Positions 57,210 to 64,000 are shown, counted from the first letter of the stretch. The stretch: 64,000 nt of DNA from Candidatus Poribacteria bacterium (GCA_965261435.1 CBDHDL010000021.1:142872-206871); one strand, 5' to 3'. Made by a program: numbers and translations. The notes: a model not told the origin generated them from the letters alone.

Positions 57210-58184
57210 TCAGTTTTTTGCAGCATATATCTGAGATATAATACGATTTGTTCGCAAACCTGATTCACCTGTAACTCGAATAGGTTCACCCGTTCTGATA
57301 TGATTGACGAAATCCTCAACTATGCCTGTATGGGTATGTGTTAAAGGTGTTTGGTGCAAATCTACCAGTCCATCCGATTTAGTTTCAAGTGTCAGTTTCC
57401 CTGAATTTAGCGGTGAACAACGTAGACATCCGGTGGTACCATATACCTCTACATCGTCAATTCCGATTCCGATGTTCCAGTTTATATTCGCGACAGCGTG
57501 CGTGCCACTTTCAAAACGGAGTGTAAAAACAGCTGAATCATCCACTGGTATATCTTGATGTATAGTCTCAGCATAACCCGTTGCAGATTCAATGTTTCCC
57601 ATCAGGTATTCAAGCAGACTGATTCGATGACTTCCAATGTCCATTAGGACACCACCCCCACTTATCCCTGGGTTTATCCGCCAATTTTTCAAATCAGGAC
57701 GGTTTGGATTGTAGTAAGCGGTGCAGTTGACGCGAGCAAGTACCACGTCACCAATTGCGCGTTCATCCATCAGTGCTTTCATTTTGACGATATTTGGAAA
57801 GAAGTTTCTGTAGTAAGCAACCATCAAGGTAACACCAGTATCTTTGCAAGCATCTACCATGCGTTGACACTCTTCAACAGTGATCGCCATCGGTTTTTCA
57901 CAGAGAATATGTTTGCCAGCGTGTGCGGCTTGAATTGTCTGTTCACAGTGCAGATAAGGAAGGGTTGCTATGTAAACTGCATTAACCTCCTCATCTGCCA
58001 GGAGTTGATCTACATCAGTATAGTAACGTTTTGCACCGTGTCTTTTAGCAAAATCCTCTGCTTTCGCACGATCACGGCGCATCACAGCAATAAGTTCAGA
58101 GTCTTCAACTGTATATAGTGGTGGTCCACCTTTATGCTCAGCGACATTACCACAACCGATGATACCCCATCTCAGTGTTGCCAT
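57210..58184 (-). CDS. Gfo/Idh/MocA family oxidoreductase
   Basis: LRWGIIGCGNVAEHKGGP and HILCEKPMA. 324 aa. Confidence 0.8.
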   Translation of the reverse strand: MATLRWGIIGCGNVAEHKGGPPLYTVEDSELIAVMRRDRAKAEDFAKRHGAKRYYTDVDQLLADEEVNAVYIATLPYLHCEQTIQAAHAGKHILCEKPMAITVEECQRMVDACKDTGVTLMVAYYRNFFPNIVKMKALMDERAIGDVVLARVNCTAYYNPNRPDLKNWRINPGISGGGVLMDIGSHRISLLEYLMGNIESATGYAETIHQDIPVDDSAVFTLRFESGTHAVANINWNIGIGIDDVEVYGTTGCLRCSPLNSGKLTLETKSDGLVDLHQTPLTHTHTGIVEDFVNHIRTGEPIRVTGESGLRTNRIISQIYAAKN

Positions 58185-58359
58185 AAATTGTGTCCTATAG
58201 TATTGTTATAACAAAAAATGATAGAAGTCAGAGGATATTATACTTGAGAGAATTAGAATTCCACCACCCCCTTGCTGATACAGATGATGGATTACGTGCT
58301 TTTGAGTTGAAGGAACATGATGGGTATGTATTGTGTTGTGGGAAGATGACGTGAGTGAT

Positions 58360-60846
58360 TTAGTGCAATCTATTTGATGCTGGTTCATGTTTTACCGGTT
58401 TTACACATCGAAATCCAATGGTGGGACTTGTACAATCAGGCGAATTTGTAACAATACGAAAAGTGACTCGAATGCCGTTTTTGGAACTAGCCCAAGATCC
58501 TCCGCGCACTACACGACCAGTTACAATATTTCTATAGTTTTTTACAATGCTATTGATACTACCTCCGGATATAGGATTTAGTTCAGGAGATATTGTATAA
58601 AAACTACCGTTATAGTCATCAAGACAATACTCAGAAACATTCCCGTATAGATCATATAAACCATAAGGATTAGAGGCATATTTACCAACAGCTGTTGTAC
58701 TCCCCACTAAAAAGTTATAATTTACATCTGAAGTCTGAGGTAGATTTATAGATTGATTATTCATTCTCCCACGTGCAGCTTTCTCCCATTCTGCTTCTGT
58801 TGGTAGTCGTTTTCCTTTCCAATTGGCATATGCCATGGCTGCATACCAACTCACATAAACTATAGGGTGATTTCCTTTACCTATTGGATAATTGTTACCA
58901 TTCCAATGGTGCAAATATTTGCCATCATGATATTTGCGCAAAATCAGATCTTTGCGCCAATTTTGATGTGAATCAATGAATTTTTTGTATTCCGAATTAG
59001 TTACCTCATAAATGTCTATGTAGAATGCATCTAAATAAACTGAATGTTCTGGTCTTTCATCCCTAAATGCATTTTGATCAGTTGCGCTGCTTCCCATTCG
59101 AAATTCACCAGCAGGTATCAGTACCATCCTTAAGTTGTTATTAATTCTTGGTGAGCTAATACGCGTGTCTTGTAACACTGATTGATTATCAGAGTTCCTA
59201 ATAGATCTAAAAGTGGAAGTTAACCGTTTTATTTCTGCATTTTTCTCGCTGAGTTGAGATTTCAGCTTGTTGTTTTCATTGGTTAATGTCCTTTGATTTT
59301 TTTTCGATGTTTCTACACTTGCTGTAAGCTGCTGAATTTCAGTACTTTGATTTTTCTGACTAAGTTTTAGTCTATCGATTTCAAGTAAAGCGGAATTCTT
59401 CTTATCCATCTGAAACACAAAGGCTATAATGCAACAGACCGAGACTAAGGCTAATAGACCTATGCTGTATTCTTTTATTTTAAATGGGGGTTTTGATGAC
59501 AAAGTATGTGCTGGTTTAGTATGGGTTGGTTGATCGGTAGAATCTTGTTCTTGAGTTGAATTAGCATCTGTAGAGGCATGTATAGAAGTGACTTCTGAAG
59601 TCTTAATAGTTTTCAACAACTGTTTTGCAGGTTGGTAGTGTGGATCAATTCTTAACGCATCACTAATTGCACTATTTGCCTTGTTAATTTCACCCAATTT
59701 AAAATGGGTTAGTCCTAACCCGTAATGTGCTTCTTTATAGTCTGGATCTTGACTGATTGCGTATCCAAATGCAACTATCGCTTCAGTAAATCTCTTAGTG
59801 TGGAGATTAGCAAGGCCAAAACCATAAATAGCGCGCTTATAATTGCAATCTATAGATACGGCCTTCTGGAATTCTATAAGTGCTTCAGTATACTGTTTGT
59901 TGCTTAAAAGTATAAAACCGGAATCTGTATGTGAATTAACATCGGGCATTGGTAGTATATCTTCTAAGGGATGTAATTGATCAATGGAAGTCTTACCACA
60001 ATAATCTTTTAGAGTTGTTGCTAACTGACGAATTTCAGAGGATAATTTGTTAAGTTCTTGAAATATCTCCGATTGGTTTGGATTCTTAAAATCCTCCTTT
60101 GTGAATAGCAAGCCTTTTTCAGTCTTATCTTTAAACTTATCCCACAATTCAGGTCTTTCAGATAAACTAAGAAAAGACAAATATATCACTAACTCAGAAA
60201 AATAATCCATTTTCTCGTTGCATTGATCAGTTCTTAGAGGATGTTGATATTCTGGAAGTCCTGGAGTTGGACTTTTTTGGCCTTGAAGATTAGGTACAAA
60301 GAGACTGTCATAATCAATTAGTTTGATTGTTATATTTTTTCCATTTCTTGTTAGTAGTATATTCCCATCTTGCAGATCACCATGGGATATCTGATTTACA
60401 TGTAGACACTCAAACATTTTCCTAAATTCATCTGCTACTATGGCAAAGATACCAGTATCATTGAGATTCTGATCAACAAATGCGCGCAACAAATCACCAT
60501 CTGTCCATTCCATACGAGTGATCGGCCATTTCTTACCGTTGATTAGGATTCCTTCTTGTACATATTCAAAATCAACGAAGTATGGTAGATTAACTTGTTT
60601 AAGGTATCTATCAATTTTTTCATAACGATTCTTTGAATCACCAATGTCTTTATTCCAGCACCGCAACGCGTATTTACTGTGCGCGATATCAATAGGAAAA
60701 ACAGTTGAAAAACCACCAGTGTATACAAGTAATTGATTTGTCGAATTCTTCTTGGATTTACCTCCTTTAAGTAACGGATCTAGCAAGCAAACATCTGGAT
60801 ATCCACCGACAGCTTGTACATAATCCGCTGGAGTTGGCCAAAGCAT
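58360..60846 (-). CDS. transmembrane protein-kinase-like / TPR / FGE-sulfatase-domain fusion protein
   Basis: N-terminal kinase-like motifs (HGDLQDGNILL; IDYDSLF); three to four TPRs; Ser/Thr-rich linker; TM helix LLALVSVCCIIAFVF; coiled coil. C-terminal FGE/SUMF1-type domain (RMGSS...RDERPEHSVYLDAFYID.YEVTN.EY..F...; YVSWYAAMAYANWKGKRLPTEAEWEKAARG; YGLYDLYGNVSEY; RVVRGGSWAS) that lacks the catalytic Cys pair. Confidence 0.7.
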   Translation of the reverse strand: MLWPTPADYVQAVGGYPDVCLLDPLLKGGKSKKNSTNQLLVYTGGFSTVFPIDIAHSKYALRCWNKDIGDSKNRYEKIDRYLKQVNLPYFVDFEYVQEGILINGKKWPITRMEWTDGDLLRAFVDQNLNDTGIFAIVADEFRKMFECLHVNQISHGDLQDGNILLTRNGKNITIKLIDYDSLFVPNLQGQKSPTPGLPEYQHPLRTDQCNEKMDYFSELVIYLSFLSLSERPELWDKFKDKTEKGLLFTKEDFKNPNQSEIFQELNKLSSEIRQLATTLKDYCGKTSIDQLHPLEDILPMPDVNSHTDSGFILLSNKQYTEALIEFQKAVSIDCNYKRAIYGFGLANLHTKRFTEAIVAFGYAISQDPDYKEAHYGLGLTHFKLGEINKANSAISDALRIDPHYQPAKQLLKTIKTSEVTSIHASTDANSTQEQDSTDQPTHTKPAHTLSSKPPFKIKEYSIGLLALVSVCCIIAFVFQMDKKNSALLEIDRLKLSQKNQSTEIQQLTASVETSKKNQRTLTNENNKLKSQLSEKNAEIKRLTSTFRSIRNSDNQSVLQDTRISSPRINNNLRMVLIPAGEFRMGSSATDQNAFRDERPEHSVYLDAFYIDIYEVTNSEYKKFIDSHQNWRKDLILRKYHDGKYLHHWNGNNYPIGKGNHPIVYVSWYAAMAYANWKGKRLPTEAEWEKAARGRMNNQSINLPQTSDVNYNFLVGSTTAVGKYASNPYGLYDLYGNVSEYCLDDYNGSFYTISPELNPISGGSINSIVKNYRNIVTGRVVRGGSWASSKNGIRVTFRIVTNSPDCTSPTIGFRCVKPVKHEPASNRLH

Positions 60847-60865
60847 AATTACTCCTAAATTCTTA

Positions 60866-61795
60866 CTAATTCTTATTCAACAATACTATTACAAGTATTA
60901 CAAATCCTACTATAAAACCGAAAACACCTGCAAGAAAAGCCCAGAATATGAAACTAATTAATTTTGAAATTGTCTGACTATCTTCATTTGGAATATTATT
61001 TACACCTTCATGGTCATCCGAAATTTCACATTCTTCAATAGAAATCACCATTAATGTAACATCGTCATTGACTAAGCGCAACTCATCGTTACGTGCTTGT
61101 TCAACAAAGTATTCAAATTGTTCTTGTTGTTCTAAATTTGTTAATTTATCAATAATAGGACTTAGCCCTTTTGCTTCGTAGTTTTGTAAAATCCATTTTG
61201 ATAAGGCATCTGTTGCTAAGATAAGAATATCACCAGGGATGATTGTACCATTTTCTTTTCTCGGTGGACCTCCGACAGGATTGTCCTTTGGAAAACTAGC
61301 AAAACTGTCAGGCCTATATGGGAAATCATCTGACTTTTTTAATGGAAAACTGATGCATTTGGAATTCCTTAGATGAAATAGACAACTGTCTCCTATAATT
61401 AAAGCGTCCCATTCACTCCTTTCACGGTTGAATTCAATTCCAATAAAAGTAGAGAGTGCAGATTCATGTTGAGATAGACGATCAACAAGAATATATGACT
61501 TGGATTCTTGGACGATTTTAGATACTAATTCTATCCATTCTTGTTGAATAGGTTTTATCCATTCTTTCCAATTTTTTTCATTCAGTGTCAGGTTTTCATC
61601 TTTTTTGTTACAATAATATTTAACTAAAAGCTCTGCCCATTCTTTTGGAAAGAAAGATAATGTAGCACCATCCGCAACTGCAAAACGACCATTCTCTTCG
61701 TTAAGACCGTAATCGTCTTGACAGTCATCTATGGTTTCCCCTTTTTTATGGGTTTTGAAATGACTAACCTTTAATTTATTCATTAGATAATCCAT
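60866..61795 (-). CDS. PP2C-like protein phosphatase with C-terminal membrane anchor
   Basis: Metal-binding Asp contexts FAVADGAT, IIGDSCLFHL and LILATDALS fit PP2C motif order. The C-terminal hydrophobic helix is FIFWAFLAGVFGFIVGFVILVIVLL. Confidence 0.5.
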   Translation of the reverse strand: MDYLMNKLKVSHFKTHKKGETIDDCQDDYGLNEENGRFAVADGATLSFFPKEWAELLVKYYCNKKDENLTLNEKNWKEWIKPIQQEWIELVSKIVQESKSYILVDRLSQHESALSTFIGIEFNRERSEWDALIIGDSCLFHLRNSKCISFPLKKSDDFPYRPDSFASFPKDNPVGGPPRKENGTIIPGDILILATDALSKWILQNYEAKGLSPIIDKLTNLEQQEQFEYFVEQARNDELRLVNDDVTLMVISIEECEISDDHEGVNNIPNEDSQTISKLISFIFWAFLAGVFGFIVGFVILVIVLLNKN

Positions 61796-61892
61796 TCTTT
61801 ATTCATTATAACACTTATTAAAAAGAACATGAAAAATACGACCATGCAAGGTCTTACAACAAGCCAATAAAACCGGACCAAGACAAACTAAT

Positions 61893-62711
61893 CTATTTAG
61901 TGACTTTTACAAGAGATCCTGGTGAGCCAAATTCAATGATCCGACTGGTCAGAGCTTCATCTGCGTTATACGCGAAGCACCGAGCACCTGGCTGGGGAGC
62001 AAAACCGTGTTCACGGGCACTTGGAAATAAAGATTCAGGTAAAACACTCGAAATACTAAAAAGAAACTCAGCAGATGGATTATCAGAAAACTGTGAGTTA
62101 TCATATTGAAATTCCACTGGGTTGTCAGAATTTGCAATATGGATGTTATAGACTAATACATTTCCATCTGTGGTTTGGAGATTCATTATCGTTCTTGCTG
62201 CATCACCTGCTAAATCTGGATAGGTTGCTTCACCATCTGTGACGTTTATTATCACAGGTGGAAAACTGTCAGGCCAGTCAGCAATCCAATCATTGACAAT
62301 CTTTGAAGCCCTTTCAAATGCTTCATGCATTGGAGTTCCTCCACTTGCGCGAGGGAGTAACCATATTGGCAATTCTACATCTACTTCAACAACGCCGCCT
62401 GCACCATCTGGTATTTTTTTTGTAACTGCCTTTACTTCAATTGGTGAATTATAGACATCATCTATCATTCCTTCCACTACGGTATCAACGTTTTCACCAT
62501 AACTAATCACACTTACAAAGCATCGCGGTCTATACTCCGGACCTACTTGACACTTTAAAGCAAGATTAAAAATTGCACGATTGACTATTAATGTAGCTTG
62601 TTCTAATTTCAATCCAGTTTGCCAATCTTCATTCATAGACCACGACTGATCTACTAAAATAACAATACAACCTGGATTTGATGTTCCTATAGGGAGATTA
62701 CTATAAGCCAT
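61893..62711 (-). CDS. vWA domain protein (TerY-like)
   Basis: MIDAS motifs VILVDQSWSM, SGGTPM and NVTDGEAT. 272 aa. First gene of a vWA / phosphatase / kinase triad. Confidence 0.7.
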   Translation of the reverse strand: MAYSNLPIGTSNPGCIVILVDQSWSMNEDWQTGLKLEQATLIVNRAIFNLALKCQVGPEYRPRCFVSVISYGENVDTVVEGMIDDVYNSPIEVKAVTKKIPDGAGGVVEVDVELPIWLLPRASGGTPMHEAFERASKIVNDWIADWPDSFPPVIINVTDGEATYPDLAGDAARTIMNLQTTDGNVLVYNIHIANSDNPVEFQYDNSQFSDNPSAEFLFSISSVLPESLFPSAREHGFAPQPGARCFAYNADEALTSRIIEFGSPGSLVKVTK

Positions 62712-63119
62712 TCAACCCTCCTATTACTATGAATATGTTTAACACAATACCTTCGCCAAAAATGGACAGTTTTTCATAAGCCAATCAACTTTGAAAAACC
62801 ATTCAATGTGCAGGTGGAGCAGAAAACTACTTTTATCCACATCCTGTTTAGAATACACTAAGTTTAGAACCTTTACACCTCAAGACAGTCAAATGTTTGT
62901 TGAAGTATTTACATGATTAAAATGCTTCTGCTAAAACATGAAACTATTCTAATTCATTAAAATCCTTGAACATCACGGATCGTCGGGTGGTATCCAACAC
63001 ATATCCATTCAACGCAAACTTAGATAATTGGCGAAGTTATTGATAAATGTACTACAACTATAACGAGTTGTGTTAGTTAACTATTTGTTTGTATCCTTTT
63101 CACACAGATGGACTTAATG

Positions 63120-63210
63120 TTATAAACATATCGTCCCTACGGGACTGAAGAGAGGGTATTCTACGTTTTTCTATAAACATATCGTCCCTACGGGACTGAA
63201 GAACCTATCT
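63120..63210. repeat. two direct copies of a 35-bp palindrome-containing unit (CTATAAACATATCGTCCCTACGGGACTGAAGAGA) about 50 bp apart
   Basis: The core GTCCCTACGGGAC is a perfect hairpin. The units are separated by only about 15 bp. Confidence 0.8.
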
Positions 63211-63627
63211 TTCATAAGGAAAACACACTGAATATTGGACACATGTGAAAACATGTTGTACAATAAGTTATTTAGCAGAAGTCGTAACTATAATAATGCA
63301 TATATTCATATTATGCAATAACTATTTTTATATGTTGCTTTATGTTTAATATCTTAATATTAACTTTACAATACGAAAAAAATACCGTAGTTATTCTATA
63401 GGACACAAACTGGGAGTTTGTGGTACAAAAAAGAAACATTTTCAATTAGAAAATGTCAATAAGATACCAGTAAACACTGCGGTGAATCTTTCTATGTTTA
63501 TGGTCAATGTGAGTGCGCGTATGGCATTCGTCCAAATCAACGTCAAATACGCGTTTGGTATATGGTGGGTATCGCTCACGCTCTACCTATAAGTGTAAAC
63601 TTAAGGAATTTTCTATGTCAGAAATCC

Positions 63628-63810
63628 TCTCCAGTCCCGTAGGGACGCTATGTTTATAGTTAAACGTTATACAACCCCTCTTTAGTCCCGTAGGGACGAT
63701 ATGTGTAGTAGTTCATCCTGATATAAACATATCGTCCCTACGGGACTGAAGAGAGGTGAGGGTATACATTTTTCTATAAACATATCGTCCCTACGGGACT
63801 GAAGAGAAGA
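63628..63810. repeat. cluster of four more copies of the same unit, two inverted then two direct
   Basis: Inverted copies at about 63629..63660 and 63677..63708; direct copies at 63722..63757 and 63771..63808; the period is 48-53 bp. Confidence 0.8.
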
Positions 63811-64000
63811 CAATCCCAATAACTATAAGGGTTCGAAATGATTCATAGAAACATCAAAATTCTCTTAAATTGACACCTATAGGTTTCGCTTCGCTCTACC
63901 CGACCTACAAGTTAAGTATTGACAGAACACTAATGTGAACCTGAACTGTCGAATTTCCTGATCGCATCATCAATTGCTTTTCTGTATGCAGCTCTGGCTA

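Follow-up and report, generated by a model that had tools for sequence, protein, structure and literature searches.

Three consecutive genes at positions 58360 to 62711 of a 64,000-nucleotide (nt) stretch of DNA from Candidatus Poribacteria, a phylum of sponge symbionts, encode a vWA protein, a PP2C phosphatase and a Ser/Thr kinase (STK) of the TerY-P family. We refer to the whole stretch as the window, and residue numbers are those of its proteins. Our reading of the triad is that it is a TerY-P system built as a membrane receptor kinase, which would sense something outside the cytoplasm through a domain with the fold of a formylglycine-generating enzyme (FGE) and whose output is probably defence or stress related; judging from the sequence, we put the probability of this reading at roughly 60%. 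The triad is a new wiring of the already known TerY-P system, and no new kind of system. The new part is the C-terminal module of the kinase, in which tetratricopeptide repeats (TPRs), a transmembrane (TM) helix, a stalk and the FGE domain follow the kinase domain, and no description of an FGE ectodomain on a TerY-P kinase was found in the literature searched. The TerY-P triad was reportedly first described by Anantharaman et al. 2012, and Gao et al. 2020 are said to have found phage protection by its STK-OB subtype. TerY-P shields against T7-like phages and counts as an anti-phage system (PMC7699616; PMC11090510). The initial annotation of this region, made from the sequence alone, had made no mention of this anti-phage role.

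The three open reading frames (ORFs) were found on the minus strand exactly where that annotation had placed them, at 61893-62711 (272 aa), 60866-61795 (309 aa) and 58360-60846 (828 aa), separated by gaps of 97 nt (vWA/PP2C) and 19 nt (PP2C/kinase). Strong Shine-Dalgarno sequences precede the vWA gene (AGGAGG) and the kinase gene (AGGAG). The order vWA, PP2C, kinase had been read as a TerY-P triad, and this was borne out by PADLOC, a defence-system profile library whose TerY-P models are TerY, PP2C and STK_OB: the window proteins matched all three models (Table 1), the TerY match running across the full length (residues 1-256) and the STK_OB match covering only profile positions 1-301 of 562, that is, the kinase part.

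To place the triad among its relatives, one genome per species was scanned for relatives of the kinase, which gave 73 loci, and gene order was checked by tblastn in 76 loci. About 61 of the 76 kept the order vWA, PP2C, kinase; they were spread over Poribacteria, Alpha- and Gammaproteobacteria, Bacteroidota, Clostridia, Planctomycetota, Verrucomicrobiota, Actinomycetota, Chloroflexota and others; the loci that departed from it mostly lay at contig ends or had PP2Cs too divergent for the threshold. A chance juxtaposition of the three genes is ruled out by this conserved order. With the kinase domain alone, an exhaustive HMMER search retrieved 6,637 clusters at 50% identity (E<=1e-3; 3,284 at 1e-30). 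The order kept across phyla and the number of kinase clusters together indicate that the triad is real, conserved and common, and the strong matches to all three PADLOC models, with the retained order, argue for its assignment to the TerY-P family, with a TerY vWA protein, a PP2C and a 'DYD'-type Ser/Thr kinase. It is the short gaps and the conserved order that suggest co-transcription of the three genes. No second copy of the triad was found elsewhere in the window.

Both partners of the kinase look functional, with their active-site and metal-binding residues intact. The DxSxS, T and D motifs of the metal-ion-dependent adhesion site (MIDAS) that had been reported for the vWA protein were all present (D21-x-S23-x-S25, T126 and D159) and are kept in at least 70 of 71 homologues. 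Hydropathy revealed neither a TM nor a signal segment in this protein, which is predicted to be cytoplasmic. In the phosphatase, the metal-binding Asp residues D27, D42, D136, D196, D244 and D245 are conserved in all 63 homologues compared, as is G43. Its proposed membrane anchoring also stood, in the form of a C-terminal TM segment that recurs in 31 of the 63, comprising nearly every poribacterial copy and few others. Against Pfam, the vWA protein matched VWA_2 at 4.7e-5, under the gathering score, and the phosphatase matched PP2C_2 at 4.7e-5, slightly under it, while the kinase reached 31.0 bits with Pkinase over aa 44-278 (gathering score 31.7). Since the kinase and vWA scores fall just under threshold, such cassettes are easily missed in annotation; one homologue was annotated merely as 'tetratricopeptide repeat protein'.

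The kinase proved to be fused to TPRs, a TM helix and an FGE-sulfatase domain, as had been proposed (Table 1). Nearly all poribacterial homologues have a TM helix at the corresponding position. An AlphaFold2 (AF2) model of aa 473-828 rendered the TM helix and the stalk as one helix (model residues 2-84, aa ~474-557), with a pLDDT (predicted local distance difference test) score of 70-87 in its core. Since the protein has a single TM helix and its N-terminal domain depends on ATP, the FGE domain would lie outside the cytoplasmic membrane, and an extracytoplasmic, non-catalytic binding role is a reasonable inference.

Table 1. Features of the triad, with positions counted from the first nucleotide of the window.
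Feature	Residues	Position	Strand	Basis
TerY-type vWA protein, 272 aa, complete MIDAS		61893..62711	-	PADLOC TerY 2.6e-49; AGGAGG ribosome-binding site upstream
PP2C catalytic domain (309-aa protein, 60866-61795)	17-254	61034..61747	-	PADLOC PP2C 1.2e-26
PP2C C-terminal TM tail anchor	288-306	60878..60934	-	Kyte-Doolittle 3.09
Kinase domain (828-aa protein); xGGFSxV loop, ALR62CW, HGD157LQDGN162, LID178YD	1-300	59947..60846	-	PADLOC STK_OB 1.5e-65; AF2 model
Three TPRs, cytoplasmic side	about 304-410	59617..59937	-	TPR_2 1.2e-12, TPR_11, TPR_19
Single TM helix, IGLLALVSVCCIIAFVFQM	462-480	59407..59463	-	Kyte-Doolittle 2.57
Predicted long helix / coiled-coil stalk, membrane to FGE domain	about 486-557	59176..59391	-	AlphaFold2; weak coiled-coil family matches
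FGE-sulfatase (C-type-lectin-like) domain without both catalytic Cys, predicted extracytoplasmic	573-816	58399..59130	-	Pfam PF03781 1.1e-56

That the FGE domain is instead an enzyme, either one that generates formylglycine on the many sulfatases of Poribacteria or a kinase-tethered oxidase resembling EgtB, PvdO or OvoA, is suggested by the strength of its PF03781 match and by its closest PDB sequences, which are true FGEs (6muj, 2q17, 5nxl and 2aft, about 1e-27). The fold motifs RMGS, WEKAARG, YGLYDLYGNVSEY and RGGSW are all present in the kinase translation. It had been claimed that the domain keeps these motifs but not the catalytic Cys pair, and alignment to solved FGEs agreed: where FGEs read RGGSY-L-C-H-D-S-Y-C-N-R-Y-R, the window protein reads RGGSW-A-(3-residue gap)-S-S-K-N-G-I-R, so that the first catalytic Cys falls in the 3-residue deletion and the second is a Lys. 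Without the Cys pair the domain cannot make formylglycine, and among the FGE-bearing homologues the catalytic loop could be located in 66, none of which has a Cys there. Partial matches to the NCBIfam families EgtB, GldK/PorK, SenA and PvdO were all far below the cut-offs (120.7 against 360 for EgtB, 53.5 against 500 for PvdO) and covered the shared FGE fold only, with no match to the N-terminal part of EgtB. Furthermore, TPR and WD40 modules can take the place of the domain among the relatives. The missing Cys pair and the far sub-threshold scores led us to discard an active FGE or EgtB/PvdO-type enzyme as a candidate, and we regard an enzymatic role of the domain as very improbable.

The catalytic status of the kinase bears directly on whether the triad can signal by phosphorylation. 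In an alignment of the 73 triad kinases, H155, D157, Q159 and N162 of the HGDLQxGN motif, D178 and D180 of DYD (which replaces DFG), and R205 and D214 were invariant (73/73), and so were G44 of the Gly-rich GGFSxV loop and A60. R62 aligns with the VAIK Lys position of PAK1; this beta3 residue is Arg in 67 and Lys in 6 of the 73 kinases, and Arg in 111 and Lys in 18 of 150 cluster representatives. The position of the alphaC Glu, residue 76, is occupied by E, A, K or Q across the family, next to a conserved R74-Y75. Judging from this alignment, ALRCW, HGDLQxGN and DYD mark the TerY-P kinase family as a whole and are not peculiar to the window gene. The ALRCW and HGDLQDGN motifs that the initial annotation had called atypical are thus present but shared with the 73 triad kinases, and HGDLQDGN, which it had placed in the N-lobe, is the catalytic loop of the C-lobe. 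The possibility it had raised, a kinase domain without the catalytic Asp and Lys entirely, was not what we found, as D157, N162 and D178 occur in 73/73 and only the beta3 Lys has given way to Arg. AlphaFold2, run on a 75-sequence alignment, predicted a Hanks-type fold with high confidence (pLDDT 94.9; predicted TM-score, pTM, 0.91). Foldseek compared this model with the PDB and returned generic Hanks kinases (ULK1, ASK1, CaMKII, PKR and B. subtilis YabT; TM 0.5-0.6), and therefore no close solved relative was found.

A dead pseudokinase that merely scaffolds the vWA protein and the phosphatase at the membrane, with Arg in place of the ATP-anchoring Lys, would account for several of these features. 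The beta3 Arg is found in about 90% of the family, and replacing K by R there is the standard way to make a kinase dead; the family does not conserve the alphaC Glu, and the Pfam Pkinase score lies slightly under its threshold. In addition, a bacterial STK atlas lists a 'DYD' family among the pseudokinases, in which the VAIK Lys is missing from 60% of members but the Asp residues of HRD and DFG are retained (bioRxiv 10.1101/2025.01.12.632604), and from its motifs this is apparently the TerY-P kinase family. The invariance of H-x-D and N, the DFG-equivalent Asp and the Gly-rich loop across phyla is, however, hard to explain without catalysis, and Arg and Lys swap at beta3 inside one family. The constant PP2C partner, its active-site residues intact, implies a real phosphorylation cycle; the consistent pairing of Arg-for-Lys 'DYD' kinases with an intact PP2C across phyla thus argues for activity. 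Because the other catalytic residues are invariant, Arg and Lys interchange at beta3 and the partnership with an intact PP2C is constant, we favour an active kinase that anchors ATP by an unusual residue and consider the pseudokinase unlikely.

Comparison of the relatives pointed to the C-terminus of the kinase as the part of the system that varies. A protein identical to the window kinase was found on a 4.83-Mb contig, and full-length homologues of its architecture are numerous (50-61% identity, 99% coverage), with an FGE domain in 76 of the best 120 matches. Among genomes with names, the full-length architecture is confined to Poribacteria, where kinase relatives were found in about 30 species-level genomes. 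Other poribacterial loci carry TPR arrays after the TM helix (L009, L010, L013 and L015-L017) or WD40 propellers after it (L021 and L027), and L011 has a WD40 propeller and no TM helix. The chassis can be near-identical while the ends differ: in L008 and L009, which are 83% (vWA), 67% (PP2C) and 77-79% (kinase domain) identical to the window proteins, the kinase ends in an FGE domain and in TPRs, respectively. Wider relatives of the kinase carry S1/OB, TIR, zinc-ribbon or TCAD9 modules. From the variety of C-terminal modules on similar chassis, we infer that TerY-P varies at the C-terminal end of its kinase, which presumably specifies the input.

Tandem copies were also seen. On a 5.81-Mb poribacterial contig (ENA ERZ26050812 ctg28421; L077/L078, about 3.687-3.708 Mb), three vWA, two PP2C and three kinase genes stand in tandem, in the order TPR gene, NTase-HEPN, vWA-PP2C-kinase/TPR (800 aa), vWA-kinase (393 aa) and vWA-PP2C-kinase/coiled-coil/FGE (891 aa), and the array ends with an AAA_15/AAA_21 gene and its 172-aa partner. 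Two distant cassettes, L079 (3192-13144) and L080 (3334-9137), have kinases about 32-33% identical to that of the window and a Lys at beta3; in both, the product encoded after the vWA and PP2C genes combines two kinase domains in tandem with a TM helix and an FGE domain. In L080 a WD40 propeller comes behind the FGE domain, and L079 has three kinase-FGE genes in a row and an adjoining sulfatase gene.

A few loci showed irregular arrangements. In L014 (6001-8513; OZ241845.1, poribacterial), the ORF of the FGE-type kinase ends at 257 aa while the homology continues to the FGE domain, so the copy has probably been frameshifted or pseudogenised. An additional triad-type kinase of 667 aa without a TM helix lies between the vWA and PP2C genes of L028 (2046-9000), before the FGE-type kinase. 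In the gut-associated loci L034-L038 and L050 (Bacteroidales, Prevotella and Clostridia), ~1-2 kb separates the PP2C gene from the kinase-domain match (~0.4 kb in L036), a spacing that points to either one more gene or a kinase lengthened at its N-terminus in this branch of the family.

In the relatives, the cassette occupies a slot between DUF6785/PPS_PS genes and a pair of GFO_IDH_MocA genes with DUF58, and the window shares the GFO_IDH_MocA pair and DUF58 downstream of the triad. What else the slot contains varies between relatives (MTase-HNH, NTase-HEPN, AAA_15/AAA_21 pairs and TnpB), and such variable contents are the pattern of a putative defence hotspot. The tandem array of L077/L078 lies at this hotspot too. 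The G+C content at 58001-64000 is 35-37%, compared to 38-48% over most of the window, and would agree with a segment that is variable or was acquired.

The setting can also be read as that of a lineage-typical receptor-kinase pathway for symbiosis or envelope signalling, one that senses sponge-matrix molecules (e.g., sulfated glycans) or the state of the envelope and whose FGE, TPR and WD40 modules belong to the eukaryote-like repeat repertoire of sponge symbionts. The same syntenic slot beside the two GFO_IDH_MocA genes and DUF58 in several genomes fits such a pathway, as do the presence of the cassette in about 30 poribacterial species-level genomes, the sulfatase gene adjoining the distant FGE-type triad of L079, and the fact that the nearest functional analogue, TagR-PpkA-PppA, senses envelope damage and not phage. 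Against it, the TerY-P family is validated as defence elsewhere, and the cassette has variable, defence-like neighbours in the slot. Conflict systems typically show tandem duplication with swapping of modules, and relatives fuse TIR, OB or nuclease-like modules. We consider symbiosis or envelope signalling possible but rather doubtful; by analogy with the validated systems, an anti-phage output is tentatively favoured over host or envelope signalling.

A domain of ~120-140 aa was observed in several relatives, either joined in frame to the N-terminal end of TerY, the vWA protein (L001 5811-6230, L002 5811-6230, L013 3743-4162 and L029 3528-3950) or as a separate gene nearby (L005 2204-2623, L009 3513-3866, L007 2428-2778 and L026 9890-10276). 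It gave weak matches to Pfam HSDR_N and HSDR_N_2 and showed, by eye, a PD-(D/E)xK-like pattern (...AADIVL...AIAECK), making it a candidate nuclease effector of poribacterial triads. This HSDR_N-like domain is absent from the window.

How the receptor kinase might work can be outlined from its predicted parts. The kinase domain, the TPRs and the vWA protein would lie in the cytoplasm, with the phosphatase tail-anchored in the membrane. The FGE-like ectodomain may bind an extracytoplasmic ligand or report a disturbance of the envelope, such as a phage particle, an incoming attack or a glycan of the host or sponge matrix. Binding would alter the oligomeric state of the protein, e.g., by dimerisation, through the stalk and the TM helix and so turn the kinase on, which would then phosphorylate cytoplasmic targets, plausibly including the TerY vWA protein. 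The MIDAS of TerY could then engage a phospho- or acidic ligand, and the membrane-anchored PP2C would reset the switch. By analogy with validated TerY-P, the output is most probably a defensive or stress response, either growth arrest or activation of an associated effector.

Several points weigh against the receptor-kinase reading. On the side of the kinase, R62 stands where the canonical beta3 (VAIK) Lys would be, the alphaC Glu is not conserved, and the apparent TerY-P kinase family is filed under pseudokinases in the STK atlas. The AlphaFold2 model of the ectodomain (aa 473-828) was poor overall (pLDDT 54), and the topology rests on hydropathy and on the need for cytoplasmic ATP. A promoter scan returned 21 promoter-like sites against 22.1 expected, a terminator scan gave nothing convincing in the intergenic gaps of the triad, and no obvious effector gene adjoins the window triad. 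The triad also sits at a conserved chromosomal position in most of the poribacterial species sampled, and this position and wide occurrence fit lineage-wide housekeeping or symbiosis signalling as well as defence. Finally, we know of no trigger, substrate or effector of TerY-P, nor of an established mechanism even for the OB type.

A wider proposal is that TerY-P triads have turned into single-pass receptor kinases in Poribacteria and, independently, in one or more further lineages, and that their swappable ectodomains (FGE-like, TPR or WD40) recognise phage particles or incoming attack from beyond the cytoplasmic membrane. We hold this tentatively and think it on the whole unlikely; if true, pattern recognition outside the cytoplasm would feed a bacterial immune switch based on phosphorylation, which tandem duplication and the swapping of modules at a single hotspot of the chromosome would have diversified. 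The same chassis bearing different outward-facing binding modules suggests that input enters at the kinase C-terminus, and the module-swap series provides matched chassis for ectodomain exchange. Although the organism is uncultured, the series is a concrete handle on signal reception by TerY-P. A further hint from the series is that periplasmic signals may be read by some immune or stress switches of bacteria, as they are by TagR-PpkA-PppA of the T6SS (type VI secretion system).

Around the triad, annotation by synteny of the ORFs at 54-64 kb gave oxidoreductases, DUF58, a glyoxalase and a repeat region. The 1.3 kb upstream of the vWA gene holds no convincing ORFs. A ~30-nt element, TATAAACATATCGTCCCTACGGGACTGAAGAG, with the palindrome GTCCC-TAC-GGGAC, occurs six times at 63111-63806, in both orientations. 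The elements are arranged in tandem pairs ~51 nt apart, with 94-nt inverted arms around ~400 nt, and as single-stranded DNA the region forms a large nested hairpin (z = -20.5). No matches to the element were expected by chance (expectation 0), and one further copy was found in the 76 related loci (L005). The region, just upstream of the triad, looks like an insertion of the miniature inverted-repeat transposable element (MITE) or repetitive extragenic palindromic (REP) type. Rfam matches to miRNA precursors in these hairpins were rejected, since scores of 25-35 bits against gathering scores of 80-110 reflect the hairpin shape only. No tRNA was found in the window.

Described TerY-P kinases end in an OB fold in the stand-alone, phage-tested systems or in a zinc ribbon in the CoCoNuT-associated ones (PMC11090510). 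With the OB type (Gao et al. 2020), the window triad shares the three protein families, their order and the signature motifs of the kinase. In place of the OB fold, with no match to STK_OB positions 302-562, the window kinase has the TPR-TM-coiled coil-FGE module, and kinase and phosphatase are both membrane-anchored. The kinases of TerY-P in the McrBC-related Type II/III-A CoCoNuT systems, and reportedly those of the original triad of Anantharaman et al. 2012, end in a zinc ribbon and lie inside nuclease/helicase operons, whereas the predicted sensor of the window kinase lies outside the membrane, and no CoCoNuT or McrBC genes adjoin the triad.

The 'DYD' family of the STK atlas has, like the window kinase, DYD for DFG, frequent loss of the VAIK Lys and retention of the HRD and DFG Asp residues. 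The portion of the atlas text cited here mentions neither vWA nor PP2C and does not link DYD to triads or FGE domains; in another kinase family, 'Proteo1', the atlas records a kinase plus FGE-sulfatase architecture (bioRxiv 10.1101/2025.01.12.632604). FGE-sulfatase domains also serve as sensors on defence STAND NTPases (PMC13581612). Avs-like STAND NTPases place the same C-terminal sensor repertoire (FGE-sulfatase, WD40 and TPR) on a signalling core in defence, but the core of the poribacterial triads is a kinase, phosphatase and vWA protein, and most of them put the module beyond a TM helix. As a non-enzymatic binder, the FGE fold is known from T6SS immunity in Tsi3 (bioRxiv 10.1101/2021.05.21.445229), and PorK/GldK and T. 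denticola TvpA were among the PDB matches of the window FGE domain. Like the window domain, Tsi3, PorK/GldK and TvpA have the FGE fold without the FGE active site and bind in the envelope; they are stand-alone periplasmic proteins or lipoproteins, while the window domain is the ectodomain of a kinase.

The closest likeness in function is to the H1-T6SS of P. aeruginosa, in which the periplasmic FGE-like protein TagR activates the TM kinase PpkA, opposed by the PP2C phosphatase PppA (PMC6082577; PMC13411936). TagQRST-PpkA-PppA-Fha1 and, as predicted, the window triad have in common a periplasmic FGE fold that feeds a Hanks kinase with one TM pass, against which a PP2C acts, an arrangement that reports envelope insult in the T6SS. 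TagR is a separate protein, while the FGE fold of the window is fused to its kinase. PpkA also carries a vWA domain, whereas the vWA of the window is a separate, cytoplasmic TerY protein, and the window kinase belongs to the DYD/TerY-P family and not to the PpkA type of the T6SS pathway. No T6SS or FHA genes were found among the ORFs flanking the triad at 54-64 kb, the remaining window not having been scanned for T6SS genes. Membership in a T6SS threonine-phosphorylation pathway (TPP) locus or a CoCoNuT/McrBC locus was rejected on the lack of such genes beside the triad, and the triad stands outside the T6SS pathway because its kinase family differs as well. By analogy, then, the window system would work like a fused version of the TagR-PpkA input, with sensor and kinase joined in one TerY-P protein.

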